Shown: piece by piece, positions 21,957-60,971 of the stretch
Layout: the number at the start of each line of letters is the position of its first letter
Numbering within the stretch: position 1 is the stretch's first letter
Assembly: GCA_047628775.1 (NCBI GenBank)
Contig: JBLHVW010000003.1
Coordinates: 2,624 to 66,623, forward strand
From: Salibacteraceae bacterium
Lineage (GTDB): Bacteria > Bacteroidota > Bacteroidia > Flavobacteriales_D > Crocinitomicaceae
DNA: 64,000 nt
Direction: 5' to 3'
The notes under the pieces: model-generated
What the model was told of the DNA's origin: nothing
Seen by the model: only the letters and a program-made list of their open reading frames with translations
The model's database searches: none
Made by a program: the position numbers and the translations under genes

Positions 21957-21973
21957 TTTATTGTGCTATAATT

Positions 21974-26567: not shown

Positions 26568-26568
26568 G

Positions 26569-28268: not shown

Positions 28269-28399
28269 ATTGGATCGCTGGCTCTTTTGGATAATGGACC
28301 GCTTCGCTATTGGATCGTATAACTTCACTACCGTTTGTTTTTCAACAGCTATCGCTTTTTCTTGCCTTTTAGATTTTTGATTAAGTGCTGTGTTTTGAT

Positions 28400-28575
28400 T
28401 TTAACCACATAGGCGCAAAAGACACAATTTATGCCAACTCTTGATTGGAGTACGAGACACTATGTAATCACTTTGTGATTCAGGATTTCTTTCGGTCAAT
28501 GTTCTTTAAATACTTCACCCAACCATTGTACTAAAACAATACACTTCTTGTGCCTTTTGCGCCTCTGTGGTTAAA
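28400..28575. repeat. MITE-like element of the same family as 21974-22330
   Basis: Terminal inverted repeats TTAACCACATAGGCGCAAAAGACAC (28401-28425) and GTGCCTTTTGCGCCTCTGTGGTTAA (28550-28574) flank about 125 bp. The ends resemble those of the 21974-22330 element. Confidence 0.6.
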
Positions 28576-28746
28576 TAATTTTACTTAGCAAAAAATGCTC
28601 TGCAGTTAAAACCATATCTTTGAAATCAAATTTTCAGAATGGCACTAATAAAAGAATGCAGAGAAGAAGCTAAGATTCTTGAGCAGGTGAAGACCGATGT
28701 GGAATTAAGCAAGTGCGATAGCTAAAACAAAATCTTACAAAAAAAT

Positions 28747-29265
28747 ATGGCTTTGATTAAAGAATGCAGGGGAAAAAATCCAACCCATGGAAACGATTGC
28801 TGGTTTGCAGAAAATGCAACAATTGTTGGTGATGTCACCATGGGCGATCAATGCTCCGTTTGGTTTAGCGCTGTAATTCGCGGTGATGTGAATTCCATTG
28901 TAATGGGGAACAAAGTCAACATTCAAGACGGCGCTGTGATTCATTGCACCTTCGAAAAAACAAAGACGGTCTTAGGCAACAACGTTTCAATTGGACACAA
29001 TGCTTTGGTGCATGGATGTACTGTTGAAGACAACGTTCTTATCGGAATGGGATCGATCGTTATGGACGATTGCTATATCGAATCTGGAAGTATTATTGCT
29101 GCAGGAGCTGTACTTTTAGAAGGTTCAAAAGTAGGAAAAGGTGAAATTTGGGCTGGCGTTCCCGCTAAGAAAGTAAAGGATATTTCTCCTGAGCTGTTCG
29201 AAGGTGAAGTAATGCGAATTGCGAATAATTACGTGAAGTATTCAAGTTGGTTTAAGGAGGAATAA
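28747..29265 (+). CDS. gamma carbonic anhydrase family (left-handed beta-helix, hexapeptide repeat) protein
   Basis: 172 aa with WFAENATIVGDVTMG, SVWFSAVIRGDVN, NIQDGAVIH, IGHNALVHGCTVEDNVLIGMGSIV and AGVPAKKV, typical of the gamma-CA/YrdA-like family. Confidence 0.9.
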   Translation: MALIKECRGKNPTHGNDCWFAENATIVGDVTMGDQCSVWFSAVIRGDVNSIVMGNKVNIQDGAVIHCTFEKTKTVLGNNVSIGHNALVHGCTVEDNVLIGMGSIVMDDCYIESGSIIAAGAVLLEGSKVGKGEIWAGVPAKKVKDISPELFEGEVMRIANNYVKYSSWFKEE

Positions 29266-29362
29266 AATCTCACTATAACCAAAACACTTCCAAGTTTTGT
29301 TGTTTAACAATGTTTAGAATTGGTGATGCCGTAATTAGACATTATCACCAATAAGCAGATAG

Positions 29363-30109
29363 CTATTCACTCACTCTCTTCTGAAATTCACCTACTTTGT
29401 TTCTTGATACTTTTGCAACAACATTGCAACTAAGACTTGTTGTTCCACGTGTTTTATTGAATAGCTGTAGATGTTTCAGATTAATTATCCAAGTTCTGTG
29501 GGATCTAAAAAATCCTGAATCTTCAGGCAATACCGATTCAAAATACTTTAGCGTTTTACTCACCGTAATAATTTGACCATCAGAAAGGTGAACCTTGCTA
29601 TATGCTCCATCTGCCTCGATTGCAATGATAGTATCTAACTTCAAAACGCGTCGATCTCCAAGTTCAGGAATTACGATTTGCTTGAACTCCTTCTCTTTCA
29701 TTGACTCAAGAAGAACTGTGTAATCATCTAAACGTTTACGTTCTTTTAATTTTGCCTCAAGGCGAGTTACAGCTTCACTCAAACGAGTTCTATTGATTGG
29801 TTTTATAAAATAATCAATTGCACTTAACTCAAAAGCCTTAATAGCGTATTGATCATAGGCAGTCACAAAAATGATCTCAAAATCTATCTGATCGAAGAAG
29901 TTTACAATTTCGTATCCAGCGTAATTCGGCATTTGAACATCTAGAAAAACAACATTAGGTTGCGATCGATTGATTTCCTCAACAGCTTCGAGAACATTTG
30001 AGCATTCAGCAATGATATTGATGACAGGACAACACCGCTCAAGAAGACTGGAGAGCACATTGCGGGCTCTTCGTTCGTCATCAACTATTATGGCATTTAT
30101 TTGTGTCAA
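29363..30109 (-). CDS. LytR/AlgR (LytTR) family response regulator
   Basis: Receiver domain (AIIVDDE...FLDVQMP...IIFVTAYDQYAIKAFELSAIDYFIKP) plus LytTR DNA-binding domain (IIAIEADGAYSKVHL...FFRSHRTWIINLKHL). TTG start. Confidence 0.9.
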   Translation of the reverse strand: MTQINAIIVDDERRARNVLSSLLERCCPVINIIAECSNVLEAVEEINRSQPNVVFLDVQMPNYAGYEIVNFFDQIDFEIIFVTAYDQYAIKAFELSAIDYFIKPINRTRLSEAVTRLEAKLKERKRLDDYTVLLESMKEKEFKQIVIPELGDRRVLKLDTIIAIEADGAYSKVHLSDGQIITVSKTLKYFESVLPEDSGFFRSHRTWIINLKHLQLFNKTRGTTSLSCNVVAKVSRNKVGEFQKRVSE

Positions 30110-30209
30110 GGTGCTAATTTAATGAGGATAATTGGAATTGTACTTTCTTCAAGTTGTTAAAATCCGACTCCTCAGATGAGAAGTCGGCTGTGTATAATGG
30201 TATGTGGTA

Positions 30210-32594
30210 TTAATTTTTCACCAAACGAATACGTGTTATCCGAGCATTTGTTTGAACGTTTGCCATGTAAATCCCAGGAGATAAATTCTCAATTGAGAAC
30301 GATCCTGTTGTTTCTTGCTGCACCAATGCTCCGTTTAAATTGAAGATCAAAACCGATTCAATTTGCTGATCCGTATCGATTGTTATAATTGTTGATGCTG
30401 GATTTGGATAAACCAGTACTGTTTTTTGTTCCATTTCGGTTAATCCTACTTCTGTTACTTCTGTACATTCTGTAAAGTCTGAACAACCCGATAAGGTTAC
30501 TTCACATGCATAATTACCATTTACAGTTGGAGTGAACGTTTGATTTGTTGCTCCTGGGATGATGTTGAAATTATCATCACAATCAACCCATTGGTATTCT
30601 ATTGCTCCTGCTTGATCTGCTGTTAATGTAATCCCTGATTCTGAAACTGAAGGATTCACTGTACAGCTAGATATGTTATCGAAGTAAAGAAATACTTGCG
30701 AGTATTGAATACTGCTCAGAATATCCAAATCACCATCAGCATTCAAATCAACTAAAGAAGTAAAATTTCGATAGGGATTTGGAGTAGTGTAGAACACATC
30801 TCTTAAAAAGAACGGGTTATTCTGCCCGCTTCCAAATGTAGGGTTAGATGTCGTTCCTGTATTTTCGAAAAATAAGAACCCTGGATCATTTGCTCTCTCT
30901 CCGCAAAGAAGATCCATATCTCCATCATTATCCAAATCTCCGAAGGAGATGGAAGAAATAGGATATGATCCACTTATTGGATTCAATCCGAAGGGACTTA
31001 AGACTGGAGTTCCAAAAGTTGGAGCTGACACTGAACCTGTATTTTCAGTAAAGTAAAACGATCCAGTAGCACCATCGAACGACACAAAATCAAGATCTGC
31101 ATCGTTATCCAAATCAACTAAAGTTGGAATATCTGTCGCGATTGTATTAATCATACCAAATGGGCTTGATTGTATCGCGGCGAAAGCAGGATTAGCCGCA
31201 TCTCCAGTATTTTCAACGAATCCTATCTCTCCATCCCAAGAATTTCTCCCAAATAAATCCAAATCTCCATCTGCATCAATATCCGCTAACGTCGGATTAT
31301 CAACTAGACTCGACGTTAGAGAAAATGGATTTATTATTGGTGTATTAAAATTGGCCAAAATAGCGGTACCGGCGTTTTGATAGTAATACAAATCACCATC
31401 CTTTTCTGCAATCATATCCATATCGCCATCGTTATCTAAATCACCAAACGATTGAGCTTCACCATGAATATCTCCCGTCGTTAGTGAAAACATACCCATG
31501 TGTCCATCAGTGAAATTTGGAGCTGAAATAGTGCCATTATTTTCGTAAAAACGAAGCTCTCCGTTGTATAAGTTAGGTGCAATAATATCAAAGGTTCCAT
31601 CTCCATTGAAGTCTCCTATAGTTGTACCACGCACTGTTCCAAAAAGATTCTTTAAATAAAATGGTTCAATTACAAATGCCGCTAAATTTGCGACAGTAGC
31701 AGTTCCCGTGTTTTCAAAATATTTAAATGCACTAGAAGTAGTAGCTAACACATCTAAATCACCATCGTTATCTAAGTCAACAAGTCTACTATCGCTTAGA
31801 TTTCCCATTGAGTTATAATCTACAACTGGAGCGGCGAAGTCTGGAGCAACATTAGTCCCTATGTTTTCATAGTAATCACTATTGGTGAACATGTCCAAGT
31901 CACCATCCCCATCAAAATCACCAAAGGTTGGGTTAGGTATGTGTGACGGAACAACAAGAGAGAATGGATTGGTAACCGGTGCGGCAAAATTTGGCGAAGA
32001 AGAAGTTCCAGTGTTTTCCAAGTATACAAAACTGATTACCCAAGAACCGTAATTGTATTCTCCAGCCAAAATATCATAATCTCCATCGTTATCCAAATCA
32101 ACAAATGCTGGTTTTATATATTGATTGGTAGAACTTAAAGAAAAGGGATTTGTTTGTAGAGCAGCGTAGTCTGGAGCCAATGTTGTTCCAGTATTCTCAT
32201 AATAAAAGAAATCACCATCTGCATTGGCTGCTAGGATGTCTAAATCTCCATCATTATCTAAATCTGCAGACGTAAGGCTACCTTCAACATTATTCGCTCC
32301 TGAAGGAACCGGCTGTAAAGAAAACATATTGACATGATTTTCTTGAAACTCAGTTTGTGCTCTCACATTTTGAACACCTAAGCTCATTACTGCAGAACAA
32401 CTTGCGGCAAGAACTGCTTTACGTTTGATGTTCAATTCTAAACTTTGCAGTTTAGCGAATAGGCGTTCAATGTGCTTCCGAAGAACACCTTGTCTGTGTT
32501 CGTTCTTTCCGTTTTGTTGCAAGCGAACAAGTTTGCTTCTGTATTTATTAAACTTTCTGAGAAGATCGTTAAATGTGTGTTTTTGTTTTTTCAT
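30210..32594 (-). CDS. FG-GAP/VCBS repeat protein with T9SS type A sorting domain and extended basic N-terminal region
   Basis: More than ten DLDNDGDxD-type repeats. Has a C-terminal Cys module (YQWVDCDDNFNIIPGATNQTFTPTVNGNYACEVT) and the tail VYPNPASTIITI...GIYMANVQT. Paralog of 32611..34950. Confidence 0.85.
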   Translation of the reverse strand: MKKQKHTFNDLLRKFNKYRSKLVRLQQNGKNEHRQGVLRKHIERLFAKLQSLELNIKRKAVLAASCSAVMSLGVQNVRAQTEFQENHVNMFSLQPVPSGANNVEGSLTSADLDNDGDLDILAANADGDFFYYENTGTTLAPDYAALQTNPFSLSSTNQYIKPAFVDLDNDGDYDILAGEYNYGSWVISFVYLENTGTSSSPNFAAPVTNPFSLVVPSHIPNPTFGDFDGDGDLDMFTNSDYYENIGTNVAPDFAAPVVDYNSMGNLSDSRLVDLDNDGDLDVLATTSSAFKYFENTGTATVANLAAFVIEPFYLKNLFGTVRGTTIGDFNGDGTFDIIAPNLYNGELRFYENNGTISAPNFTDGHMGMFSLTTGDIHGEAQSFGDLDNDGDMDMIAEKDGDLYYYQNAGTAILANFNTPIINPFSLTSSLVDNPTLADIDADGDLDLFGRNSWDGEIGFVENTGDAANPAFAAIQSSPFGMINTIATDIPTLVDLDNDADLDFVSFDGATGSFYFTENTGSVSAPTFGTPVLSPFGLNPISGSYPISSISFGDLDNDGDMDLLCGERANDPGFLFFENTGTTSNPTFGSGQNNPFFLRDVFYTTPNPYRNFTSLVDLNADGDLDILSSIQYSQVFLYFDNISSCTVNPSVSESGITLTADQAGAIEYQWVDCDDNFNIIPGATNQTFTPTVNGNYACEVTLSGCSDFTECTEVTEVGLTEMEQKTVLVYPNPASTIITIDTDQQIESVLIFNLNGALVQQETTGSFSIENLSPGIYMANVQTNARITRIRLVKN

Positions 32595-32610
32595 AATGTA
32601 ATTTATAATG

Positions 32611-34950
32611 TTATTGTTTCATGAATTTAACACGTGCCAATCCTGTGCTTGTTTTAACATTCAGCATGTAAATTCCTGAATCCAACCCTTCAATTGAGAA
32701 TGAAGCTGTTGTTTCTGATTGAATTAAAACTCCCGATAAATCGAAGATCAATATAGAGCTGATTTCATCTTCCGAATCAATTGTGATTTGATCCGTTGCC
32801 GGATTTGGATAAACGTTCACATGGGTCTTATACACTTCATCCAATCCAATCGTTGTAATTGCAATACATTCTGTATAATCAGCACATCCTACCAATGTAA
32901 CTTCACATGCATAATTTCCATTTACAGTTGGTGTAAATGATTGATTTGTTTCACCTGGAATAATGTTGAAGTTGTCGTCACAATCCACCCAGTAATATTC
33001 AATTGCACCAGCTTGATCTGCAGTCAGTGTATTTCCTGTTTGGGTAACGCTTGTATTCACTGAACAACCTGAAATGTTTTCGAAGTAGTAGAAATCTCCA
33101 CTATTACCACCTGTTAAGAGGTCCAAATCACCATCTCCGTCCAAATCACCAAATGTAGGACTCGGATTACCAGTTCCGTAAAATAGTGAGAATGGATTAA
33201 CAACTCCCACGTCAAAGTTAGGAACGGAAGCCGTTCCAATGTTTTCTTGATAGCGCCATCCATTGTTTGAACAAACCAATGCATCCAAATCTCCATCTTC
33301 ATCCAGATCAACAAAACTAGGACTAGAGTTTGATGCAGAATTCATCAGTGAAAAGGGATTGGTTTGAAAAGCAGCGAACACTGGAACAGAACTAGTTCCT
33401 GTATTTTCAAAATAGGATAATCCTTGATTAACACTGCCATTCAAAATATCCAAATCTCCATCGTTATCCAGATCCCCAAACGTTGGCCTAGAGCTCCATA
33501 GTCCGGTTGTTACAATAGAATATGGATTCGTTTGCATTACACCAAAAGAAGGAGCTAATGTAGTCCCTGTATTTTCAAAATAAATAAGCTCTCCAAACCC
33601 TTCACCAGTCATTAAATCTAAATCACCATCAGCATCCAAATCAACGAATTCAGGAAATAGACTGCCAGATCCAATATTTGTTAGAGAGAATGGATTTGAC
33701 TGAAATACAGAATACACCGGCACTGCTAAAGAACCAATATTTTCATAAAATGCGAAATCCCCATTGTTATCTCCAGTTAGTATATCTAAATCTCCATCTC
33801 CATCCAAATCACCTAATGTCGCTGAATTTCTTACTCCATTACTGGCTAAAGAAAATGGGTTTGCAAAAATATTTTCAAAAGCAGAAACGGTTGGTGTTCC
33901 GATATTCCCGAAATAGAAAAAATCCCCAACGTTATTTGCCTGAATCATATCAAGATCTCCATCATTATTCAAGTCAACAAAACATGGATCTTGACCATTA
34001 TAAATTGGCGAAAGGGCAAATGAATTAACTTCTTCTGGACCAAAAACTGGAACAGCTGACGTGCCTGTATTTTCAAAAAAGCTTGTTAAACCTCCTCTTC
34101 CAGAAAGTAAATCAAAATCACCATCTCCATCTACGTCACCAAAAGATGGAGATAACCAACCTGTTGATGAAGAGAGAGAAAATGGATTCGTTTGATCTAC
34201 AGCAAAATTTGGAGAAGTAGACGTTCCTATATTTTCGAAATAGTGAAAATCGGAAGTTTCCTCTCCTGCCATTAAGTCAAAATCACCATCATCGTCTATA
34301 TCTACAAATGATGAGTGCAAATATGACCCAGTAGTTGTTAAAGAGAAAGGGTTCATCTGTGGTGTTCCAAAAGCTGGAGCAGATACTGTCCCCGTGTTTT
34401 CAACGTAGATGAATTCACCGGCAACGTTCCCGTGCATTAAATCAAAATCTCCATCTCCATCGAGATCTACAAATTCAGTTGAAAAATTATTCGGTACTGT
34501 TGTAAGAGAAAACGGATTCACTTGTTCAGCGTTAAAGGATGGTGCTGATGCCGTTCCTGTATTTTCAAAATAGTGAACATCACCAGAATACGTGCCAGAA
34601 ATAGCATCATAATCTCCATCATTATCAAGATCCGCAAATGATACAGCGAACATATAGCCAGTAGTACTCGATAGATTAAACGGATTAGGTTCAGGCGAGT
34701 AAAAGTCTATCTGAGCATTCGTTTCTTGAATACCTATTCCCATTATTGCTGTAAAGCTTGCTGCAAGAATAGCTTTACGCTGCATATTAAAATGGAATCC
34801 GTTAAGCTTAACAATGAGTCGTTCAATGTGCTTTAAAAGAACTCCTTGACGGTGCGAATTTATTCCGTTTTCTTGTAAACGGGCAAGCTTGTTTCTATAC
34901 TTATTGAGCCTTCTTAGAAGGTCATTAAATGTGAGTATTTGTTTTTTCAT
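32611..34950 (-). CDS. FG-GAP/VCBS repeat protein with T9SS type A sorting domain and extended basic N-terminal region
   Basis: Same architecture as 30210..32594. The N-terminal 65 aa are about two-thirds identical by eye. Tail is VYPNPATDQITI...GIYMLNVKT. Confidence 0.85.
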   Translation of the reverse strand: MKKQILTFNDLLRRLNKYRNKLARLQENGINSHRQGVLLKHIERLIVKLNGFHFNMQRKAILAASFTAIMGIGIQETNAQIDFYSPEPNPFNLSSTTGYMFAVSFADLDNDGDYDAISGTYSGDVHYFENTGTASAPSFNAEQVNPFSLTTVPNNFSTEFVDLDGDGDFDLMHGNVAGEFIYVENTGTVSAPAFGTPQMNPFSLTTTGSYLHSSFVDIDDDGDFDLMAGEETSDFHYFENIGTSTSPNFAVDQTNPFSLSSSTGWLSPSFGDVDGDGDFDLLSGRGGLTSFFENTGTSAVPVFGPEEVNSFALSPIYNGQDPCFVDLNNDGDLDMIQANNVGDFFYFGNIGTPTVSAFENIFANPFSLASNGVRNSATLGDLDGDGDLDILTGDNNGDFAFYENIGSLAVPVYSVFQSNPFSLTNIGSGSLFPEFVDLDADGDLDLMTGEGFGELIYFENTGTTLAPSFGVMQTNPYSIVTTGLWSSRPTFGDLDNDGDLDILNGSVNQGLSYFENTGTSSVPVFAAFQTNPFSLMNSASNSSPSFVDLDEDGDLDALVCSNNGWRYQENIGTASVPNFDVGVVNPFSLFYGTGNPSPTFGDLDGDGDLDLLTGGNSGDFYYFENISGCSVNTSVTQTGNTLTADQAGAIEYYWVDCDDNFNIIPGETNQSFTPTVNGNYACEVTLVGCADYTECIAITTIGLDEVYKTHVNVYPNPATDQITIDSEDEISSILIFDLSGVLIQSETTASFSIEGLDSGIYMLNVKTSTGLARVKFMKQ

Positions 34951-34970
34951 AATGGTGGTGATTGGTTCTT

Positions 34971-36047
34971 TTATTGTTGATCAGGATTTGCCCAAAAGGT
35001 ATTTCCTGGGATCGAAAGTGATTGTTTATGAAGTGGATTGATTGTATTTAAAATATTTGGTCGAATCATTTCTTGAAGAATTGATACTTCATAAATTTCA
35101 TCGACGCTTGTTTGGTAGTTGATCTCCCCTACTTCGGCTTGTGTTGGGAGGTGAATAACTTTAACTCCTGCGAAATCAGCCTTCTCAGAAAATGCAAGTT
35201 TGGCAAATGTGCTGGAGTTTTTGCGCAACTTTGAGAAGCCAACAAAAGCGTAATCTTGGTAGATATCGAGTCCTCTGCAGAAACCATCAAAAGCCTTCAC
35301 AACTTCATACGATTTGTTTTCAATATTCACTTTGATCAATTCTCCTTTCGCAGATTGCAAAACATACAGTTCTCCGTTGTACATTCGAGGTGAATGTGGC
35401 ATTGCCAAACCATCTAAAATGATTTCATTGGTTTCAATGTCGATTAAAACTCCACCAGATGTAATGTTGTCTCTCCAACCTTGACGGGTATTTGTAGTTC
35501 CCAATGCTGTAGCGTATTTCGGCTTTCCATCAACCATAACCAAACCATTTAGGTGGCATCTGTCTTCTGAAGCTAACTTATCAATAAATAGTGGTTGCCA
35601 AATCGGTTTAAAGTTGAAGTTTCCATCTACTTTACAAATGCAAGAGAACGATGTATTCACAGCGTAGATTCCATCATCACCAAAAGCAATATCGTGCATA
35701 TCTACTTGCCCTGTATGAAATGTGATTCGTGGTAACCATAAGCTATCATACGTATCTTGTTTGTTTGGATAATGGGCTGCAAGCTCTCTTGAATTCTCTA
35801 ATAAATACACTTCGTCTTTAGCCGCAACCAACATTTTATCGCCCTTTACAGCGATTCCCATTGGTTTTTCAAAAGTTCGAGGTAAAGTTGTCAATCGTTC
35901 CTTATCTGGATTCGGACTGATAAAAACTAGCTTTCCAGCCTGATAAGTTGTTAGAGCAATAGTACAATTGAGATTTAATAAAAGTTCAGGAAGTTGAGGA
36001 GAGTAACTGCACGTGAACGGTGCATGTTGGATAGTTTGTGTATTCAT
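34971..36047 (-). CDS. TIGR03032/DUF4915-like conserved hypothetical protein
   Basis: FTCSYSPQLPELL, TTYQAGKLVFIS, EDRCHLNGLVMVDGKPKYATALG, GWRDN..GGVLIDI, MPHSPRMYNGELYVLQSAKGELI and FVGFSKLR match my recollection of the invariant blocks of this family. Confidence 0.7.
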   Translation of the reverse strand: MNTQTIQHAPFTCSYSPQLPELLLNLNCTIALTTYQAGKLVFISPNPDKERLTTLPRTFEKPMGIAVKGDKMLVAAKDEVYLLENSRELAAHYPNKQDTYDSLWLPRITFHTGQVDMHDIAFGDDGIYAVNTSFSCICKVDGNFNFKPIWQPLFIDKLASEDRCHLNGLVMVDGKPKYATALGTTNTRQGWRDNITSGGVLIDIETNEIILDGLAMPHSPRMYNGELYVLQSAKGELIKVNIENKSYEVVKAFDGFCRGLDIYQDYAFVGFSKLRKNSSTFAKLAFSEKADFAGVKVIHLPTQAEVGEINYQTSVDEIYEVSILQEMIRPNILNTINPLHKQSLSIPGNTFWANPDQQ

Positions 36048-36116
36048 TTTTCGCTTTAACGCTTATGTCATATAAGCAGTTCCTTATCAAGGATAAAGGA
36101 ATTCGACGAAATAATT

Positions 36117-36190
36117 TGAAGACACTTTGTGAACCGCAAATTGGGTTAGTGAATGGTACTTCGACAAGCTCAGTGACTGTTCGATTGAAG
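36117..36190 (-). repeat. conserved upstream element, copy 1 (before the TIGR03032-like gene)
   Basis: ACACTTTGTGAACCGCAAATTGGGTTAGTGAATGGTACTTCGACAAGCTCAGTGAC is similar to 40690-40772 and, in its right half, to 37248-37320. Confidence 0.7.
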
Positions 36191-36220
36191 CTCTTGCGAA
36201 AAAAGGTTATCAAAAATTTT

Positions 36221-37245
36221 CTATTCTATCGTTACAGTAGAACCACATGTATCATCACCATTAGCAATCAAAAAACCTTTTGAACTTCCCCCAACGCAAT
36301 AATAAACATCTGTAGAACAGATATAAGTAGTAGACCCACCTGAGCTTAATGTTGAAGTTAATCCTGAATCAGTTATTATTTTCAAAGATACTCCAGAGTT
36401 GTTTTTGATAGTATAATTAGATGCTCCTCCAGCTCCAGCTGTTTTTTTTGCTTTCATTTTTTTCGACAACCCTCTTGACTGTTCTTGTCTTAGCTTTAAA
36501 AAATCGGCAGTCTCAGCTTTAATATCAGCATCTATCACCGTCTCTTTTGATTTATCTCCAGCCAAATGCTTTTCATTCATCGCATTTAGATAGGCTTTAA
36601 TTGCCTCATCAAGTTTCATACTCTTTAACTTCTCCTCACTTGGAGTCCCTTTCACTCCATTTTTTCAGAGCATCCTTAGCTGCAGCAATTTTTTCTTTCA
36701 TTGTCATGTTTGCCTTAGCCTCTTCTTTCGCTTCAGCGGCAGCAGTTACTTCTTCGTCTGTTTGTTTAATCAGAAATATTCTTCCAATTCTTTTATAGAT
36801 TAAACCATCTGAAATACCTTCCAATGTAATCAACATATCATCAATAAAAACATACCCCCACTTTTGTGTACTTATGCGCAACTAAACTAGGATATAATCT
36901 ACTATATGAAATTTCATCTGACCCCATAAAACCTCTTGAATCTCCACCTTCTTCATATCCAATGAAACCACAATAATTTCCTTTTTCTGTTTTCTGTGTT
37001 TTAACTGTTACGACTCTGTGTGGATTTTCTGCGTGATAATATCCTTCCTTTTCTGGTACTGCACTCGTAAATATGTACTCTTGAAATTTAGTCCCTTCAA
37101 CTTTTGCTATTCCTTCATAAAAGGAATCTTGCGCTTTAACCCCAGTTGATATAGCAATTAAGTCAGTGCTACTAACACTGCGTTTTTCATGATTTTTTAT
37201 TGTTTTGATACCCGAATGCATGCAATAGCAGAAATAGCGCAGCAA
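36221..37245 (-). pseudogene. hypothetical protein gene broken by two frameshifts at homopolymer runs
   Basis: Three consecutive overlapping minus-strand ORFs (36841..37245, 36636..36881, 36221..36655). The frame changes are confined to 36843-36881 (contains a G5 run) and 36636-36668 (contains an A6 run). Confidence 0.55.
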
Positions 37246-37247
37246 TA

Positions 37248-37320
37248 CAATTTGTGAGGAACGATTTGGCTTAATAAATGGTATTTCGACAAGCTCAATG
37301 GCCTATGGTTTGAACATGGC
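37248..37320 (-). repeat. conserved upstream element, copy 2
   Basis: AATGGTATTTCGACAAGCTCAATGGCCTATGGTTTGAACATGG matches the right half of 40690-40772 almost exactly. Confidence 0.65.
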
Positions 37321-37334
37321 TTTTCCTCAATAGT

Positions 37335-40300
37335 TTACTGTTTAACAAATCTTTTTCTGACAGTCCCTTTACTTGTGAAAATCACAGCTGTATAAGTTCC
37401 TGTTGCAAGATACTCTACCGAAAAAGATGACGCATAGTGCACATCTACCAATACACCTGTCAAATCATATATCGCTACTTTTTCCAATGTCTGTTCCGTT
37501 TCAATAGTCAATATCGAGAACGATGGATTTGGAAATAGCTTAAGCGATGTCAAATTGTTTTCGTCAATACCTATAGTATTTATGCTTTCACATACAGATG
37601 TTTCAGTACAATTTCCAACAGTTACTTCAACTGCATAATTTCCATTTACCGTCGGAGCAAATGATTGGCCTATTTCACCTGCAATTGGCGAATGGTTATC
37701 ATCACAATCAACCCATTGGTAAGAATCTGCATCGGAATTAGTTGCGACTATTCCATTATTTACCATGACAATTGTTGCATCAACTGTGGTAATGGTTACC
37801 ATTTGACTATGCGTAATTGTATTTCCAGCAGCATCTTCAAGTGTCCATATGATCGTTGTTGCAGCAGTGATTGGATAAGTTGCGTCATTCGATATAGTTA
37901 CTACACCTGAACAGTTGTCCGTTGCCGTTGGAGGCGTTAAACTAGCCACTTCGCATACTGCCGTTATTCCTGGAACACAAGGACCATCTAAAAGAGGAGC
38001 CGTTATATCTTGAACTACTATTAATTGAATTACGTTTATTGAATTACCACAATTATCCGTAATGCTATATGTTCTTGTAATCGTTTCTGGGTTTGACAAA
38101 CCATCAGACACATCAGAGACAAATGCTACTGTAGGTGATGAACAATTGTCAGCTTCATCTGTAATGATCAAAATATCTTGAGCTGGAATATCTCCAGAGC
38201 ATTCAACATTCTCTGTAGCTGGGTTACTCGCAGTTGGCGGTGTAACGTCAAGAATATTGATCGTTTGATCTACCAATATTTGATTACCACAGTCATCCGT
38301 AATGGAAAATGTTCGGGTAATAATCTCCGGACAAACACCACCGTTCGAGACATCACTAACCCACACCACTATTGGTGTATTTCCGTTATCTGCTTCATCT
38401 GTTACAACTATAGGATCAGGAGCAGGCACATCAGAACTGCATTCTACATTCACAGTATTTGGATTACTTGCTGTTGGACTTGTTACATCACTAACAACAA
38501 TTGTTTGTGTTACTGTAATCTGATTACCACAGTCATCCGTGACTGAGTAAGTTCTTGTTATTGTTTCTGGACAACTGCTACCATCCGAGACATCACCTAC
38601 CCACCCCACTATTGGGGTAACCGTGCAATTATCAGCTTCGTTTAGAATTACCAATGGATCTGGTACAGGAACATCCGATATAAGTTCAACAACTATTCCT
38701 CCTGGGACACTTGCAGTTGGAAGGGTAACATCACTAACCGTTATTGTTTGTTCAACTGTTATTGAGTTTCCACAAGCATCAGTGATTGAATACGTTCTTG
38801 TAATCGTTTCTGGACAAGAACCACCATCCGATAAATCGCTTACAAAAGCAACTACTGGAATTGAACAATTATCTACCTCGTCAGTTACTACTAAGACATC
38901 CTGAGCTGGAATATCACTTGCGCATTCAACATTAATTGCAACAGGATTAGAACCCGTAGGGTTAATATTGTCGTCGATAGTATAGGTGTATGTGTAAACA
39001 GAAGAGTTCCCTATATAATCTGTATACGTATACGTGTAAATTTTATCTCCTAAACAGGCAGGATTAGCCCCAACATTAATAACAGGAACTATTGTAGTCC
39101 CGCATTCATCAGTGACATTTGGTGAAGCTGATTGAACAGCATCAGTAATACAATTCACCGTTGACGAGCCATTGGATGGGACAACAGGATTAAGAGTAGG
39201 TACACATTGTGTGATTTTTTCAAGAAAGATATCATTAAGTCCGTTAGATGTTACGTTGAACGTTCCAACATTAGGATCAAAGTCTGCAGTTCCTGCAAAA
39301 TCTCCAAGTGCATATATGTTGTCATTTATATCAACACTTATTGAGCGACCAAAATCGAAATCAGTACCGCCAAAATTTCTAGCCCAAACAAGATCTCCAT
39401 TCGAATCAAGTTTTTGAATATATACATCGGTACTACCATTTGTTATTAGGTTTGATGTACCAGCATTTGGGTCAAAATCTACAGTTGATTGAAACCTACC
39501 CGTTGTATACACATTCCCGGCTAAATCAAGACTTAAAGATCTCCCTTCATCATCTACACCCCCCCCCATAACCTTTGTCCATAACATATTCCCGTTTTGA
39601 TCAAGTTTTTGTACAAATATGTCAGAGCTTCCATTTGAGGTATAATTTAATGTTCCAGCACCTGGGTCAAAATCTACCGTTGACAAAAAAAAACCTGTAG
39701 TATATATATCCCCAGTTTGATTTATCTCAAGACCATACGCAATATCAACTCCAGTACCTCCAAAGCTCTTTGCCCAAAGAAAATTGCCGTTTGGATCAAG
39801 TTTTTGAATGTAAACATCATGTGCTCCATTGCTATTCAAAACTGATGTTCCAGCACCTGGATCAAAATCTACAGAGCCAATGAAAAACCCAGTTGTGTAT
39901 ACATTACCATTTAAATCTGCACGGGTAACTTCTCCACGTTCATCATTCCCACCACCGAAGACTTTTGCCCAAAGAAGATCACCATTAGAATCAAGTTTTT
40001 GAACGAAAACATCAGAGCTTCCATTTGAAGAATAATTCAAAATTCCAGCGCCTGGATCAAAATCGGCTGTTCCAGAAAAGTAGCCTGTTGTAATCACATT
40101 TCCATTGGCATCAATACTAACTGATTGTCCAAAATCCCAAGCAGAACCTCCAAATCCTTTTGCCCATAGTAAATTCCCATTTGGATCAAGTTTTTGAATA
40201 AACACATCGCAGCCTCCTGCAACAGTTAAATTTGTAATTCCTGCATTTGGGTCGAAATCTGTTGTTCCCCAGAAATATCCTGTCGTATAAACATTACCCG

Positions 40301-40628
40301 TAGCATCAGTTGTTATTGAGTATACAAAGTCATCTTGTGTACTCCCGAATGATTTTGCCCAAAGTAAGTTTCCATTTGGATCGAGTTTTTGAATAAACAT
40401 ATCAGACCCACCATTTGATGTTAGGTTGGTTGTTCCAGCACTAGGGTCAAAATCAACAGTAGCAAGGAATCTTCCAGCGCTATAGACATTACCGTTGATG
40501 TCTGCAGTTACAGAATGCGCAAAGTCATCTCCAGTATTCCCAAATGTTTTCGCCCATTCCATATTCTGGGCATTTGATTCGAGTGCTAATAGCGTAATTG
40601 CGATGGTAGCAAGTACAATTTTTTTCAT
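37335..40628 (-). CDS. SBBP beta-propeller repeat + tandem Ig-like Cys repeat protein with T9SS type A sorting domain
   Basis: Eight or more repeats of the type GNVYTTGYF.GT.DFDPGAGT.N..SNG..D.F.QKLD.NGNLLWAK.FGG. Four repeats of about 90 aa follow (TDEADNC...CPETITRTYSITD.CGN). Then the YQWVDCDDN...NGNYAVEVT module and the tail LFPNPSFSILTI...GTYTAVIFTS. Confidence 0.85.
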   Translation of the reverse strand: MKKIVLATIAITLLALESNAQNMEWAKTFGNTGDDFAHSVTADINGNVYSAGRFLATVDFDPSAGTTNLTSNGGSDMFIQKLDPNGNLLWAKSFGSTQDDFVYSITTDATGNVYTTGYFWGTTDFDPNAGITNLTVAGGCDVFIQKLDPNGNLLWAKGFGGSAWDFGQSVSIDANGNVITTGYFSGTADFDPGAGILNYSSNGSSDVFVQKLDSNGDLLWAKVFGGGNDERGEVTRADLNGNVYTTGFFIGSVDFDPGAGTSVLNSNGAHDVYIQKLDPNGNFLWAKSFGGTGVDIAYGLEINQTGDIYTTGFFLSTVDFDPGAGTLNYTSNGSSDIFVQKLDQNGNMLWTKVMGGGVDDEGRSLSLDLAGNVYTTGRFQSTVDFDPNAGTSNLITNGSTDVYIQKLDSNGDLVWARNFGGTDFDFGRSISVDINDNIYALGDFAGTADFDPNVGTFNVTSNGLNDIFLEKITQCVPTLNPVVPSNGSSTVNCITDAVQSASPNVTDECGTTIVPVINVGANPACLGDKIYTYTYTDYIGNSSVYTYTYTIDDNINPTGSNPVAINVECASDIPAQDVLVVTDEVDNCSIPVVAFVSDLSDGGSCPETITRTYSITDACGNSITVEQTITVSDVTLPTASVPGGIVVELISDVPVPDPLVILNEADNCTVTPIVGWVGDVSDGSSCPETITRTYSVTDDCGNQITVTQTIVVSDVTSPTASNPNTVNVECSSDVPAPDPIVVTDEADNGNTPIVVWVSDVSNGGVCPEIITRTFSITDDCGNQILVDQTINILDVTPPTASNPATENVECSGDIPAQDILIITDEADNCSSPTVAFVSDVSDGLSNPETITRTYSITDNCGNSINVIQLIVVQDITAPLLDGPCVPGITAVCEVASLTPPTATDNCSGVVTISNDATYPITAATTIIWTLEDAAGNTITHSQMVTITTVDATIVMVNNGIVATNSDADSYQWVDCDDNHSPIAGEIGQSFAPTVNGNYAVEVTVGNCTETSVCESINTIGIDENNLTSLKLFPNPSFSILTIETEQTLEKVAIYDLTGVLVDVHYASSFSVEYLATGTYTAVIFTSKGTVRKRFVKQ

Positions 40629-40689
40629 AATCAGTTCTTTCTTTACTATTTAGTACGACAATAGTACGCTTTAGTCATTTCTGATTTTG

Positions 40690-40772
40690 ACACACTTTGT
40701 GAACTGCAAATTGAGTTAGTGAACGGTATTTCGACAAGCTCAATGGCCTATGATTTGATCATGATTGAAAGT
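40690..40772 (-). repeat. conserved upstream element, copy 3 (before the SBBP gene)
   Basis: ACACTTTGTGAACTGCAAATTGAGTTAGTGAACGGTATTTCGACAAGCTCAATGGCCTATGATTTGATCATG. An inverted partial copy (AGCCTGAGCTTGTCGAAGGC) lies at 40850-40871. Confidence 0.7.
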
Positions 40773-40871
40773 GACAAAAGACTGATTGACATAAGACTTT
40801 TTTAAACTAGCTCGAAACAAGAGTAGCCTGAGTTAGCATCTGGAACAAAAGTAGCCTGAGCTTGTCGAAGG

Positions 40872-41881
40872 CTAGAATTGGTCCATATACGGCATTGTAA
40901 TAACAACTTTAGTTCCCATTGAAACTTCGTTTTCAAACAAATCGTGAATTACATAACCGACTTGTTTACCATGCTGCTCTTGAAGAATTGACAGGCGCTT
41001 ATTGATAGCGTCCAAAGCAAAGGATTCGTGGAGGTTTCCTTGTCGTCCTTGAATTTTTTGTTTTTCTAAACGCTCCGTATTTCCATGTGCCATTCTTCGA
41101 ATCTGAATCAAGTATAGGAGAAAAATAAGTGCTCCAAAGCCAATTCCCACCAAAAGACAGAACCACTCTCTTATCAAGAATGGAAGTATGATTTCAAACC
41201 GATATCGTTTGATTTCACTGTACGAATTTCGGTACTTTACTTTTACTTCAAAAGTGTATTTCCCTGGCGGGAGGCACTTAAATTGGATGAGGTCTGAAGT
41301 TGAAGGAATAGCCCTCCATTCATTTTCAAATCCAACCATTCGATACAGAATAGTTGTTTCGGATTCGTACTCAATTCCTCTGAAAGCAACAAAAAATGAA
41401 AACTCATTCTGATCGTAAGAGAATTTCTGGAAAGCATCATTTTCTACGATTCTATCTGGAAATACTATGGAGTCAATGTAAACGTTCAAGTTTGGTTTTT
41501 TTTGAGGTAGATTGTCTAGATCTAAAGACAACGGCTGTCCATCAGAAATCATCCATAACTTGTCGGAACTAAGTGCAAAATCACTTAAAGAACCATCTAT
41601 AATTCCTTCAGCAGTTCCTGGTGAATACTTACGGTCATCAACAAATTGATTTGCTCTTCTTCTGTTTGACAAATAGAGTAAACATCAGTATTGGATAACT
41701 CCTTTTCTCCAATAACAAAATAGGTTGGTTCTTGAGAGTATACCTTGAGAGGGTATGTACTAACAAGAATAAATAGTATAAGATATGTTATTCGTTTGGC
41801 CAAATTGACTTTTACAATTTTTCGATAAATCAATGGAATAGAATGCTTAGTAGGTAGATCAAACTTGAAGTTAACTTTCAT
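40872..41881 (-). pseudogene. collapsed sensor histidine kinase (Y_Y_Y domain + TM retained; propeller and most of the kinase core deleted; frameshifted)
   Basis: ORFs 41597..41881 and 40872..41672 overlap in different frames. The Y_Y_Y-like segment is FSYDQNEFSFFVAFRGIEYESETTILYRMVGFENEWRAI...PGKYTFEVKVKY, followed by a TM segment. Only about 75 aa follow it, ending GTKVVITMPY (end of an ATPase domain), where about 230 aa are expected. Confidence 0.7.
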
Positions 41882-41960
41882 AAAATGAAAAATCTATACA
41901 ATGCATGTTCAACGAATGAAAAACAAACTGGTTACACACTATAATAATTCATATTATAAT

Positions 41961-42257
41961 AACTACGCAATCGTAGAAGACAATTTTTTGATCGGGATGG
42001 GGTCTATCGTGATGGATGTTTGCTACATCGAATCAGGAAGCATCATTGCAGCTGGAGCTGTTCTTTTAGAAGGAGAAGGCGTGCAACGACTGAAAAACAA
42101 ACGTTAGTGCAGCTTGTTACAGCTGGATATATTTACCTTCGGTGCTACTTCGTGGTGAGGGGGTGTTCCTGCGAAGAAAATCAAGGACATTTCTCCAGAA
42201 TTGTTTCACTTCGTGGCTGCTTCGCGGTGAAGGTGAAGTATTCGGGTTGATTTAAAG
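41961..42257 (+). pseudogene. displaced/degenerate copy of the 3' end of the gamma-CA-like gene (copy 2)
   Basis: Encodes (I)VEDNFLIGMGSIVMDVCYIESGSIIAAGAVLLEG, then VPAKKIKDISPELF and EGEV..YSG segments. These are colinear with 29023-29265 but interrupted by inserts of about 85 nt and 24 nt and a 29-nt deletion. Confidence 0.8.
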
Positions 42258-42260
42258 ATT

Positions 42261-42296
42261 AAAAAAGGTAATTCTCAGTAAGACTCACCTTTTTTA
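42261..42296. terminator. possible bidirectional terminator hairpin
   Basis: AAAAAAGGT-17 nt-ACCTTTTTT immediately downstream of the minus-strand 296-aa ORF. The stem is mostly A:T. Confidence 0.4.
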
Positions 42297-42314
42297 ATCG
42301 ATTTTCATCAAACC

Positions 42315-43205
42315 TTAATTAAGACTAATGGTTCCAAGTGTGAATGAATAACACGTATTTCCAGACGAATCTCTACAATCAGATTTTGCGGTTAGAATTA
42401 TACCATTAGCCTCAAATGAATAGAACTTAAATAATCGATCGAATTTTTCACCTTTATCGAAACCATTCGTCAATATCTGGCGTTTTAGAACTTCACCATT
42501 TTCATCAATAACCAAATGAACTGGAGACTCATCTGCCGTAGGTACAGCATTAGAATAACTAACAAAACTGCCCTCTTTAGAATATCTAGAGTCAGCATCA
42601 TTTAGAAATATATTCAATGCACCATCTGCATCTATACCCGTTGCTACAATCGAAGAAGCATGCAAACAATTAGTTCTAACAATTTCTCCATTTGCATCAA
42701 TGAATGTCAATAACAAAACACTAATTGCATTAACTTTCATTTCATTGATTGAAATATATCCTCCATTTAAAAGCTTGTGATCTTGAGTAAAGTTGACGTT
42801 AAAATTCATTTTAATAACACCCTCTTTCTTTTCCTTAATTCTATTTTCAAAATTACTTATGTTATTGCTATTGTTCCCAGCGTATAAATCTGAATAAGGA
42901 ATTTTCACATGACTCTTTTCAATCAGTTCACCGTCTTTCACTTCTAATATGGAAACTATAATTCCTCCATTAGCAAGAATACGGAGCACCTTCAGTCGAA
43001 TACCATTTTCGTCTTCAATAACTGTACTTCCATCAATGACTCCTCCATTTTCAAACTCGAAAGACATTTTCTGTTTTCCGGACTCGTTGTGGAGCTCAAA
43101 AGTAATTTCTCCAGATCGTAAATTGTGGTCGTTCTTGTTGCCTTTATCAAGAGGTGTAGAAAGCATATAAAAGCTCCCTTCTCGAGTAATCCCATAGCCT
43201 AACAT
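42315..43205 (-). CDS. hypothetical protein
   Basis: 296-aa ORF, no signal peptide, no recognised family. Its 5' end overlaps the upstream ORF by 59 nt, so a frameshifted fusion with 43147..43560 is possible. Confidence 0.55.
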   Translation of the reverse strand: MLGYGITREGSFYMLSTPLDKGNKNDHNLRSGEITFELHNESGKQKMSFEFENGGVIDGSTVIEDENGIRLKVLRILANGGIIVSILEVKDGELIEKSHVKIPYSDLYAGNNSNNISNFENRIKEKKEGVIKMNFNVNFTQDHKLLNGGYISINEMKVNAISVLLLTFIDANGEIVRTNCLHASSIVATGIDADGALNIFLNDADSRYSKEGSFVSYSNAVPTADESPVHLVIDENGEVLKRQILTNGFDKGEKFDRLFKFYSFEANGIILTAKSDCRDSSGNTCYSFTLGTISLN

Positions 43206-43560
43206 AGGCTTTATAATCAGCCTCGATGTTATCCTGGTTAACTTTTAAAACATTATCTAGATTTTCCTTATCAAAGACATAAGCCTTCATTGCAAAAGGT
43301 TCTTCAGAATCATAGCTCCATGACATATCAACAAAAGAGAAGTATTTATTGTTCTCTTCTCCTAAAGAGTAATTATACAACTCTTTCTCTCCTTCTAGGA
43401 TGGTTTCTTTCTCCCCTGTAAATTCAAGATTCACCTTGTCTCTGCCAGTTAGAATCAGATCTTTACCTGATTTCGATTTTCCAACACAATATAATTTACC
43501 ATCTATAAGAACAGGAATCAGTCCATTCAACTGATCAACTGTAATTAATTTCTTTTTCAT
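43147..43560 (-). CDS. hypothetical protein
   Basis: 137-aa ORF. Its start overlaps the stop of the upstream 83-aa ORF (TAATG). Confidence 0.5.
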   Translation of the reverse strand: MKKKLITVDQLNGLIPVLIDGKLYCVGKSKSGKDLILTGRDKVNLEFTGEKETILEGEKELYNYSLGEENNKYFSFVDMSWSYDSEEPFAMKAYVFDKENLDNVLKVNQDNIEADYKAYVRLWDYSRRELLYAFYTS

Positions 43561-43811
43561 TAAGCCCTTACCTTTGTAGATGTAATTTGTCCATTCACCG
43601 TATCTAAATAGTGCATTTTCAAATTCATTCCCCCTGAAGCGGGTCTTCTTAATGTCATAAGCCCATTTTCTCCGAATTGGCTCTGTTGATATGCCGTTCC
43701 TTTAATCTCCCCATCCTCTTGAGGTGTAAATTTTATATCTTGAGCCGTTGAAGTTTTCGTGGCGCACACTACTAACAAACTAGCTATTATAACTTTACAT
43801 AAACCTTTCAT
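43560..43811 (-). CDS. small secreted hypothetical protein
   Basis: 83 aa with signal peptide MKGLCKVIIASLLVVCATKTSTAQ. Confidence 0.5.
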   Translation of the reverse strand: MKGLCKVIIASLLVVCATKTSTAQDIKFTPQEDGEIKGTAYQQSQFGENGLMTLRRPASGGMNLKMHYLDTVNGQITSTKVRA

Positions 43812-43910
43812 TCTTCGGAGAAATTAGTGGATTATTCTGTGTCCAAATCTAGTGAATAATATGATTCAAGTGCGACTTAAGTGGCTATTCCAGAAACAAC
43901 AAAGCCATAT

Positions 43911-44238
43911 CTACGCAACGGTTGAAGTCCAAGTGTTGATCGGAATGGGAGCAATCGTGATCGATATCTGTTATATCGAATCAGGTTCAATCATTGCGGC
44001 CGGAGCTGTTCTTTTGGAAGAAGAGGGCTTGCAACGACTGAAAAACAAACGTTAGTGAAGCTTGTTACAGCTGATATATTTACCTTCAGCGCTACTTCGT
44101 GGTGAGGGGGGGGGGAGTTCCTGCAAAGAAAGTCAAGGACATTTCTCCAGAATTGTTTCACTTCGTGGCTGCTTCGCGGTAAAGGTGAAGTGATGCGAAT
44201 TGCGAATAATTACGTGAAGTATTCGGGTTGATCTAAAA
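43911..44238 (+). pseudogene. displaced/degenerate copy of the 3' end of the gamma-CA-like gene (copy 3)
   Basis: Encodes VEVQVLIGMGAIVIDICYIESGSIIAAGAVLLEE, the same 85-nt and 24-nt inserts as copy 2, and VPAKKVKDISPELF. It retains GEVMRIANNYVKYSG. A G10 run lies at 44106-44115. Confidence 0.8.
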
Positions 44239-44905
44239 GGGAGTAAATCGATTATTAGCTTATTGGATATTTCGAAGATTCATTTAAACGCGCGTGCCCA
44301 ATGACCTAGCTGTTCTACTCTGACTAATACAATGGATGTCCATTTCAAAAAAAGCAAAGCATTATTGCATACCAATTTAGACTTCGTGACAGCAATCCTA
44401 GTTGAAAACTAATTCTCCATTTTGTTCTCAGCGAATTGACAAGATCTCTTTTGGAGAATTAGGAACTACCTTAAGAAAATTGCAATTGAATGATTTGTAT
44501 TCAGTAGATCCATAACAACCGAGTCTGTCTATTTTTTTTCCTCTGGTCCATAATGAGCGAAGCTCAAGGTATTAAGAATACGTAACACAATGAACTAAAC
44601 TCTGAGCGTATGATAAATTTATCATAATGGCTAAAATCAATCTAAAATCATTTGACGAAAGTACTCGATCAAAAAATTGTGATAATATATGCCAAAAAGA
44701 TGTAATTAACATTGAATAGCCTCATGATATTAATGAATTATTCATTAGAAGCTTAAACTTTGTATTAAATCAAAATTCAATAAATGAGACCCTTTAAATT
44801 ATTGGTACTAGTAGTGATTTTTCTATTCAAAAAACAACCATTGTCAATCTCCACAAGTAATTAGCTTCCAAACAGGTGTCAGGTAGATTACTGTTTAATT
44901 CGTTA

Positions 44906-46813: not shown

Positions 46814-46904
46814 CAGTTAATTATTAGATAAATATAATTTTTCGAAACGAAGCTGAACCATTAGTTTTTACGTTTGCAATTTCCTTTCGTGTTTTGTGAA
46901 TTGC

Positions 46905-53321: not shown

Positions 53322-53381
53322 TGTACCTGTCTGATTCCCAAAAAAATGTAACTTTAACATCTAAAACTTTTTTTTTAAATT

Positions 53382-59632: not shown

Positions 59633-59695
59633 ATACGTCTAGTTCTGGGATTTTTAATAGTGATTATTGCCCCTGTTCTATAAAAAAACATTCAC

Positions 59696-60169: not shown

Positions 60170-60216
60170 AGAAATACATCCAATTTAGCTTTGCTATTTA
60201 CAACCTTTAATGAACT

Positions 60217-60822: not shown

Positions 60823-60971
60823 GGAATGGCGAACACTTCCTACTTATTCAACTATATGAAGGTTGAAGACAATGTTCTTATTGGAAGAACCCAGGTGCAC
60901 TAAATAAATTGTTCTTCGATTTCACTTTATTTCGAATATAGGTAATTCAATGGCACTCTTATAAAACGTAC

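Follow-up and report, generated by a model that had tools for sequence, protein, structure and literature searches.

The 64,000-nt window analysed here (Salibacteraceae bacterium, Crocinitomicaceae; GCA_047628775.1, contig JBLHVW010000003.1, positions 2,624–66,623) contains an intact hexapeptide-repeat gene that is followed, in the same orientation, by displaced copies of its own 3′ end (c2, c3 and the remnant c4) alternating with three blocks of cargo DNA (A, B and C), the whole lying between conserved flanks (Table 1). The product of the intact gene is a left-handed beta-helix (LbH) protein (Pfam Hexapep, E = 2.5e-19, above cutoff). Its best NCBIfam model was that for gamma-carbonic anhydrase (gamma-CA; NF050158), with 147.7 bits against a cutoff of 250 bits, and the PaaY and CaiE models also scored under cutoff; we therefore call the gene gamma-CA-like. 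For comparison, 80 loci of Crocinitomicaceae and related bacteria were taken from >560 gamma-CA-like loci in a scan that used one genome per species and that assigned the window to Crocinitomicaceae, as Fluviicola-like, and 2.2 Mb of these loci were fetched for fragment and motif searches. The protein is 98% identical to that of the closest relative of the window organism (L005; 91% nucleotide identity across 8.7 kb of the left flank) and 80–93% identical to those of 79 other loci.

Table 1. Features of the gamma-CA-like locus, in window coordinates.
Feature	Position	Strand	Basis and remarks
Left flank, conserved: leuC, leuD, leuB	25203–28268	+	Synteny with L005, L022, L033
Gamma-CA-like hexapeptide-repeat gene, intact, 172 aa; target gene	28747–29265	+	Open reading frame (ORF) list, Pfam, NCBIfam
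Resident copy of the ~240-nt repeat unit, codon V93 to stop	29023–29265	+	Start point common to the displaced copies
Cargo block A, 12.7 kb	29266–41960		Pfam; absent from L005 and L022; GC 0.375
End motif AACTACGCAA + 2 nt, directly 5′ of c2	41961–41972	+	Junction comparison
Displaced 3′ fragment c2, dead	41973–42262	+	blastn/tblastn, MAFFT
Cargo block B, 1.65 kb; three minus-strand ORFs of 296, 137 and 83 aa	42263–43908		GC 0.344
End motif ATCTACGCAA + 2 nt, directly 5′ of c3	43909–43920	+	Junction comparison
Displaced 3′ fragment c3, dead	43921–44246	+	blastn/tblastn, MAFFT
Cargo block C, 16.6 kb	44247–60846		Pfam; near end 90% identical to L005; whole absent from L022
c4: degenerate motif TTCAACTATATGAAG, then 25-nt repeat-unit remnant; outer island boundary	60847–60886	+	BLAST, alignment with L022 empty site
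Right flank, conserved: sodium:solute symporter and GH42M-like gene	60972–63948	−	Pfam; L022 synteny

The recurrence of the last ~240 nt of the gene at two further places, in the same orientation, had been reported in an initial annotation of this DNA, and it was confirmed when the gene was searched against the window by blastn and tblastn and the copies were aligned with MAFFT. Both c2 and c3 begin at codon V93 of the gene (position 29023; GTTGAAGAC, encoding VED). The starts given earlier (41961 and 43911) include a 10–12-nt motif that c2 and c3 have in common and that does not belong to the gene. The first 101 nt of c2 were 82% identical to the gene; for c3, identity was 75% over the first 103 nt and 72% over the last 134 aligned columns (112 gene nt). 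The repeat part of c4 (60862–60886) matched 29023–29047 at 23 of 25 positions, from the same start point, and then breaks off. No homology among the copies was found past the stop codon. The blastn E-values of the two partial copies (8e-24 and 7e-18) and the occurrence of the pattern CTACGCAANNGTWGAAGWC at the c2 and c3 junctions only (0.03 expected) exclude a chance origin of the copies. Gene-tail fragments were found only downstream of the gamma-CA-like gene and nowhere else in the window or in the 2.2 Mb of fetched loci, unlike a generic dispersed repeat, the outcome that had been named as refuting a link with island borders. The order c2, block B, c3 recurred in independent contigs from five metagenome samples; thus, the array is not an assembly artefact.

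The relatives differ exactly at these junctions, where conserved synteny lacking any variation would have spoken against insertion. In L022, leuCDB and the gene are followed after 170 nt by the symporter (88% amino acid identity; 60972–62645 in the window) and the GH42M-like gene (78%). This is essentially an empty site, relative to which window positions 29.27–60.9 kb (31.6 kb) are inserted. Of the earlier annotation of two cargo blocks spanning 29.27–43.91 kb, blocks A and B stand, but the island comprises three blocks and extends to 60.9 kb. In L005, the gene is followed by a 1.5-kb block with one esterase/TPR gene that is absent from the window, then by a complete, intact-looking tail fragment and the ice-binding genes of block C (90% identical to those of the window); blocks A and B are missing. 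Window and L005 therefore share the outer block and differ in the inner ones, the order expected if new DNA enters beside the gene and pushes each older 3′ end outward, as had been proposed. Two further arrays are independent of that of the window. L021 holds four blocks between 10517 and 16754 with one ORF each (127, 852, 396 and 185 aa, two of them with sorting domains of the type IX secretion system, T9SS) and a tail fragment after each block (at 11251, 14090, 15860 and 16683), and is the most cassette-like version of the hotspot. In L052, a 4.5-kb block precedes a tail fragment that matches the L052 gene at 97% identity; the fragment is truncated and begins ~28 nt further into the unit than the common start point. 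The empty counterpart of L052 is L073, in which the gene is directly followed by the same 241-aa gene and murI, and among 16 relatives the distance from the gene to murI ranges from 16 nt to 6.3 kb. The empty site in L022, the different inner block in L005 and the empty and filled pair L073/L052 all agree with serial insertion into the 3′ end of the gene. We conclude that the 3′ third of the gamma-CA-like gene has probably served as an attachment site reused by integrating blocks, and that at least three insertions are likely to have built the 31.6-kb island. At ~10650–10680 of L022, 140 nt past the real stop codon and before the symporter, a ~30-nt relic of the gene terminus (GTACAGCAGTTGGTTTAAGGAGGATTAA) was seen, which points to an earlier insertion whose cargo was then lost, and so to a longer history of gain and loss at the site.

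The codons at which resident and displaced tails differ bear on where the tails came from. In L005, 22 codons differed synonymously and 2 non-synonymously, and 22 of the 27 nucleotide differences fell at third positions; the corresponding codon counts were 17 and 1 in L021, 5 and 2 in L052, and 15 and 2 for the first 99 nt of c2 against the resident copy of the window. Divergence that is so nearly confined to synonymous changes indicates that each tail had a history of its own within a functional gene before they came together, consistent with the earlier proposal that the incoming DNA supplies a replacement 3′ end. The resident tail of the window would then have been brought by the most recent insertion, that of block A. 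The same data argue against partial duplication of the 3′ end in situ, by slippage or in association with a transposon, with subsequent neutral decay and arrival of the intervening DNA by unrelated routes. Direct orientation of the copies, their closeness to the gene and the IS3-type relic in block C would suit such an origin. It is, however, effectively refuted by the ratios of synonymous to non-synonymous changes (22:2 and 17:1), since an untranslated copy would not diverge in this manner, and it is also at odds with the conserved non-gene motif ahead of the copies, with a start point that is the same in three species while only the truncated L052 fragment starts further in, and with the existence of empty sites. 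We give this explanation almost no credence.

The motif ahead of the displaced tails was examined at each junction. AACTACGCAA plus 2 nt stands immediately 5′ of c2 and c3 in the window (at c3 as ATCTACGCAA), of the L005 fragment and of L021 fragment A. L021 fragment C carries AACTACGTAA at this place, and the motif is degenerate at L021 fragment B and window c4 (AACTATATGA). Intact genes have CATGGATGYACN here and not AACTACGCAA. Among four junctions beside unrelated cargo in three species, the 10-mer AACTACGCAA showed 0–1 differences per 10 positions, and the 20 nt further upstream were unrelated. The third codon positions of the adjoining fragments differed by 41%, and for a neutral 10-mer the observed conservation would have P ~0.005 per pair. 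A near-invariant motif next to tails of such divergence appears to be under constraint. AACTACGCAA looks like an element end, the counterpart of an attP arm by which a recombinase would recognise the incoming DNA. Resident and displaced tails first diverge 8–12 nt into the unit, from which we infer that the exchange takes place at GTTGAAG or immediately behind it. L005 and L021 have a direct copy of ATTGAA ~20 nt upstream of the core. Hairpins ahead of the motif were found at three of seven junctions; they are not homologous to one another (folding z-scores +0.05 to −2.5), and neither a consistent attC-like fold nor an R″/L″–L′/R′ architecture was present at the junctions.

The two displaced fragments of the window carry shared damage. 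In both, ~88 nt of replacement sequence introduce an in-frame stop (TAG) and ~22 nt are inserted, and c2 additionally lacks 29 nt. They are 78% identical over the first 99 nt and ~95% identical over the remainder, shared replacement and insertion included. By position, c3 is the orthologue of the still-open fragment L005:12040–12285, its downstream flank being homologous to L005 12218–12371, and that fragment has neither the replacement nor the insertion. Damage in one fragment was likely copied into the other by gene conversion after both had been displaced. The replacement (42070–42165 in c2 and 44016–44118 in c3, 95% identical) substitutes for 34 nt of coding sequence, and a 19–22-nt piece of it (CTGAAAAACAAACGTTAGTG) recurs downstream of leuB (28323–28344, minus strand) and at the end of block A (41910–41928, plus strand). 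The shared insertion gave no significant fold (z = 0.15) and, these 19–22-nt pieces aside, no convincing copies elsewhere; the replacement likewise lacks a significant fold.

The c2/c3 mosaic shows that homologous exchange inside the repeats does occur, and this keeps alive a model in which homologous recombination acts alone. Circles composed of fragment, cargo and motif would be looped out by RecA between two tail copies and would re-enter the 3′ region of the gene, in the same or a related genome, by a single Campbell-type crossover with no dedicated recombinase, the common start point and the motif going back to a single ancestral event. At 240 nt, the repeats offer sufficient length for RecA, and the lack of a recombinase in any array (see below) also fits. 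A neutral, hitch-hiking 10-mer should, however, have diverged by ~41%, yet it shows 0–1 differences per 10 in three species; the position of the first differences means that crossovers cluster at the extreme left end of the unit and do not spread across its 240 nt; and the model does not account for how the first circle with a fragment arose. We therefore consider recombination by RecA alone to be unlikely.

Candidates for a dedicated enzyme were present in three relatives. L018, L031 and L039 encode tyrosine recombinases (Phage_integrase plus SAM_4) 80–500 nt downstream of the gene and on its strand, so that three of the five recombinase matches in the 80 relatives' loci adjoin this gene. They scored 229–230 bits against the NCBIfam model 'site-specific tyrosine recombinase/integron integrase' (cutoff 220) and comprise two subtypes that are only 35% identical. 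The initial annotation had proposed a search for recombinase-bearing elements abutting the gene fragment; these recombinases lie beside the gene in related genomes, but we could not tie them to the arrays. That an XerC/D-like enzyme of this integron-integrase type built the arrays, with the window blocks as deleted derivatives, is suggested by the closeness of three of the five matches to the gene, by the occurrence of two distinct subtypes there and by a homologue, 86% identical to the L018 enzyme, from metagenome samples in which the window organism also occurs; this homologue is a lead and not evidence. The 20 kb covered in L039, however, hold neither a displaced fragment nor the motif, and of 80 metagenome loci that encode homologues of these recombinases none had a gamma-CA-like gene nearby. 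The same 80 loci also lacked a direct repeat upstream and downstream, one unrelated case aside. The closest homologues of the L018 type (P0101 and P0098) adjoin a LytTR regulator and a uvrA-like gene and not the gamma-CA-like gene. A stretch containing TATATACTAGTTA is common to the L018-type integrases ~70–100 nt past the integrase stop, and no likeness of this region to the AACTACGCAA/GTTGAAGAC junction was seen. In L039 and L031, the enzyme belongs to a zinc-ribbon module that abuts many genes. Both the conserved TATATACTAGTTA stretch and the breaks in contigs shortly past the recombinase stop look like multicopy mini-elements, and the proposal that these enzymes formed the arrays appears very improbable. 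The zinc-ribbon module is ~1.8 kb long with two genes, a 123-aa zinc-ribbon ORF divergent from a 376–386-aa XerC/D-like tyrosine recombinase (L039 10613–12197, L031 1563–3208), and was found at ~44 metagenome loci beside many different genes (L111–L190). Contigs with the L039-type module very often end 50–175 nt past the recombinase stop, and the module has the appearance of a mini-element in many copies or of a border of hypervariable DNA.

A number of results weigh against repeated site-specific integration at the gamma-CA-like gene. Pfam scans of window ORFs (all those of ≥110 aa in 28.7–64 kb, 10 of 24 such ORFs in 1–28.7 kb and some smaller ones) gave no integrase, resolvase or excisionase-like domain, in line with the absence of a visible integrase in the initial annotation. 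No recombinase was found in the nine cargo blocks examined in four genomes (window, L005, L021 and L052), and tblastn with four Bacteroidota integrases detected no relic (E ≤ 0.28) in the arrays of these genomes. As for relics left by decayed integrative and conjugative elements (ICEs) or integrative and mobilisable elements (IMEs), Pfam showed only the IS3-type rve_3 fragment, no search having been aimed at relaxase or type IV secretion system (T4SS) genes. The recombinase family found beside the gene in relatives occurs in many unrelated contexts as well, and the L039 contig extended to 20 kb (L039/L197) contained neither a displaced tail nor the motif. Motif plus core gave 17 matches in IMG/VR viral contigs, all of them by chance in unrelated coding DNA, and the longer motif-plus-core pattern gave 0 matches in metagenome contigs. 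A search of viral contigs with the C-terminal 80 aa gave no matches other than full-length hexapeptide genes that lie in host flanks, as in L102. Neither circular or excised forms nor polymorphism within the population came to light, the array being integrated in all contigs found; exact-protein look-ups for population variants or circular junctions returned only the same arrangement, those with the response regulator giving no record. Identity between the window gene and that of L005 was 88.8% in the 5′ part and 84.2% in the 3′ part, a difference that is not significant (p = 0.15). Finally, the damage shared by c2 and c3 is not predicted by a simple serial model, which needs an extra step of gene conversion. 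Four short-read contigs from the window population (L192, L195, L205 and L206) stop within ~200 nt of c2, likely because of the ~190-nt stretch that c2 shares with c3 at 95% identity; a population-level junction variant near c2 is also conceivable.

Taking these points into account, we still favor serial integration at the 3′ end of the gene, which could have proceeded as follows. The attachment site would be the 3′ third of the gene from codon 93 onwards (GTTGAAGAC...), and each block would bring a ~240-nt copy of this 3′ end, followed by cargo and by the end motif (AACTACGCAA + 2 nt). Recombination at or just after GTTGAAG would link the 3′ end carried by the block to the 5′ part on the chromosome, so that the gene stays whole, and would push the previous 3′ end to the far side of the block, directly behind the motif. 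At least three such events at 29.27–60.9 kb, with C entering first, B second and A last, would leave the newest block beside the gene; the old tails c2, c3 and c4 would have decayed afterwards, probably with gene conversion between c2 and c3. The reaction is most likely site-specific and due to a tyrosine recombinase whose gene lies elsewhere or has since disappeared, and the blocks may now be relics comparable to cis-mobilisable elements (CIMEs) or may be moved in trans. Alternatively, the locus could be a cassette system of Crocinitomicaceae that works in the manner of an integron, with its attachment site within a housekeeping coding sequence, at codon 93. Small recombinase-less units (the 240-nt tail, one to a few genes and a selected motif of 10–12 nt) would be captured and released by a recombinase whose gene lies at another place in the genome, with growth of the array on the gene-proximal side. 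This second possibility, which we regard as doubtful, is suggested by the L021 blocks with one gene each, by the orphan block B and by the lack of integrase relics in nine blocks.

The principle of accretion is known, and this target gene and host family are new examples of it. ICEs, IMEs and CIMEs accrete in tandem at the 3′ ends of housekeeping genes (ICESt1 and ICESt3 in fda; streptococcal ICEs in rplL, rpsI, lysS, guaA and rpmG; PMC5704250, PMC4701971). As there, the target in the window is a protein-coding gene that receives DNA in its 3′ end and remains intact, and the direct repeats are the gene's 3′ end. As in CIMEs, tandem blocks keep both att sites and lack integration or transfer genes; at least two such att-flanked blocks are present in the window (A, B and C) and four in L021. 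The direct repeats here are ~240 nt long, unlike the 12–54 bp of the streptococcal survey, and new blocks appear to enter on the gene-proximal side, whereas the review places entry at attR (PMC5704250, PMC4701971). In contrast to ICEs and IMEs, no integrase, relaxase or conjugation relic was seen here (relaxase and T4SS genes were not specifically searched), several blocks hold a single gene, and the host belongs to an aquatic Bacteroidota family.

Tycheposons build additive islands in Prochlorococcus (bioRxiv 10.1101/2020.12.28.424599). Their islands resemble the present one in the scattered partial copies of the target, in niche-gene cargo and in a free-living aquatic host with few classical mobile elements. 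Tycheposon targets are, however, seven tRNA or tmRNA genes with att sites of ~40 nt (bioRxiv 10.1101/2020.12.28.424599), in place of a protein-coding gene. Active tycheposons carry a tyrosine recombinase and a replication module, and no such hallmark genes were found here.

An analogy for the replacement 3′ end is offered by the lambdoid phage 21 and e14 in icd of E. coli. These elements carry a long alternative 3′ end (~165 bp) that, on integration inside the coding sequence, regenerates a functional gene; the old 3′ end is left as a pseudo-fragment at the far junction, and the alternative end differs mainly synonymously. Unlike the integrase-less arrays described here, they are single prophage-type elements with their own integrase. 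In staphylococci, SCCmec and composite staphylococcal cassette chromosome (SCC) or pseudo-SCC arrays insert at the 3′ end of rlmH (orfX), and some units lack a recombinase and obtain Ccr from a neighbour or in trans. A single hotspot in the 3′ end of a conserved gene and tandem composites are common to both systems; Ccr enzymes are, in contrast, large serine recombinases, the SCC repeats measure ~15–18 bp, and cargo and host are unrelated to those here. The locus recalls integron arrays in its growth beside a fixed site and in its small, often single-gene units that have no recombinase of their own. Its junction, YAAC-N9–10-GTTGAAG, is reminiscent of the RYYYAAC and GTTRRRY core sites of integrons, a resemblance only. 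Unlike integrons, it has no intI beside the array (no recombinase was found in the scanned ORFs of the 64-kb window); the repeat is a 240-nt coding fragment, and cargo lies in both orientations and reaches 17 kb. No attC-type hairpin common to the junctions was seen. Besides the new target gene and host family, the unusually long coding repeat, the end motif conserved across species and the absence of recombinase relics from nine blocks, several of them with a single gene, set the present arrays apart.

How islands are assembled in free-living aquatic bacteria with few recognisable mobile elements is poorly understood beyond a few model groups. This locus offers a clean example from the Bacteroidota, with a defined attachment point, displaced tails that form datable 'growth rings', empty and variant sites, and an apparently selected motif. 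Genes for surface proteins secreted by the type IX system (FG-GAP, HYR and ice-binding-like) and orphan genes predominate in the cargo, and the hotspot is therefore likely a route for the turnover of cell-surface and niche genes. A recombinase that recognises AACTACGCAA-NN-GTTGAAGAC, if found, would distinguish ordinary decay of elements from a trans-acting cassette mechanism.

The composition of the island departs only slightly from its surroundings. GC content was 0.375 in block A, 0.389 in the left flank and 0.344 in block B, and tetranucleotide correlations were 0.91–0.93 compared with 0.94–0.96 for controls. As a test for an island, the scan of composition suggested earlier was weak. Block A encodes a LytTR response regulator, two FG-GAP T9SS proteins, a DUF4915 protein, small unknown ORFs, an HYR/SBBP T9SS protein and a truncated Y_Y_Y sensor kinase. 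The regulator (29363–30109, minus strand) lies at the near end and the kinase (40872–41672, minus strand), which lacks its kinase domain, at the far end, 10.7 kb away; the two may be a former two-component pair split by T9SS cargo. None of the block B ORFs matched a Pfam family, and the 296-aa protein had no homologue but itself among 5.8 billion proteins. Block C contains two ice-binding-like T9SS proteins, DUF6851, FG-GAP/UnbV, two unknowns and an IS3-type transposase relic, and may itself be composite. The relic is a decayed IS3-family transposase (52650–53253, plus strand) made up of an rve_3 core fragment (53008–53253, E = 1.5e-12) and an N-terminal-like piece of 48 aa. One of the ice-binding-like proteins, a 1638-aa type-IX-secreted protein with CHU_C (ORF 46905–51821, minus strand), includes 19 tandem repeats of 153 nt (51 aa) at 47450–50503 that are 88–96% identical.

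Further features were noted upstream of the gamma-CA-like gene. A short ORF (MALIKECREEAKILEQVKTDVELSKCDS*; 28639–28725, plus strand) lies 108–122 nt ahead of it. The first ~25 nt of this ORF mimic the gene's own start (peptide MALIKxC, with synonymous differences), and it is kept in four species (the window, L005 at 9893, L023 at 9883 and L034 at 9879); it could be a leader peptide or a relic of a displaced 5′ end. The spacer between leuB and the gene also holds an element resembling a miniature inverted-repeat transposable element (28402–28432 and 28547–28572; terminal inverted repeats AACCACAkAGGCGCAAAAGrCAC), to which copies 6.5 kb upstream (21967–22017 and 22074–22119) are related. Elsewhere in the window, an S-adenosylmethionine (SAM) riboswitch (1153–1265, minus strand) precedes a homocysteine S-methyltransferase gene, and the sole tRNA is tRNA-Phe (10693–10766, minus strand); both sites are free of signs of insertion.

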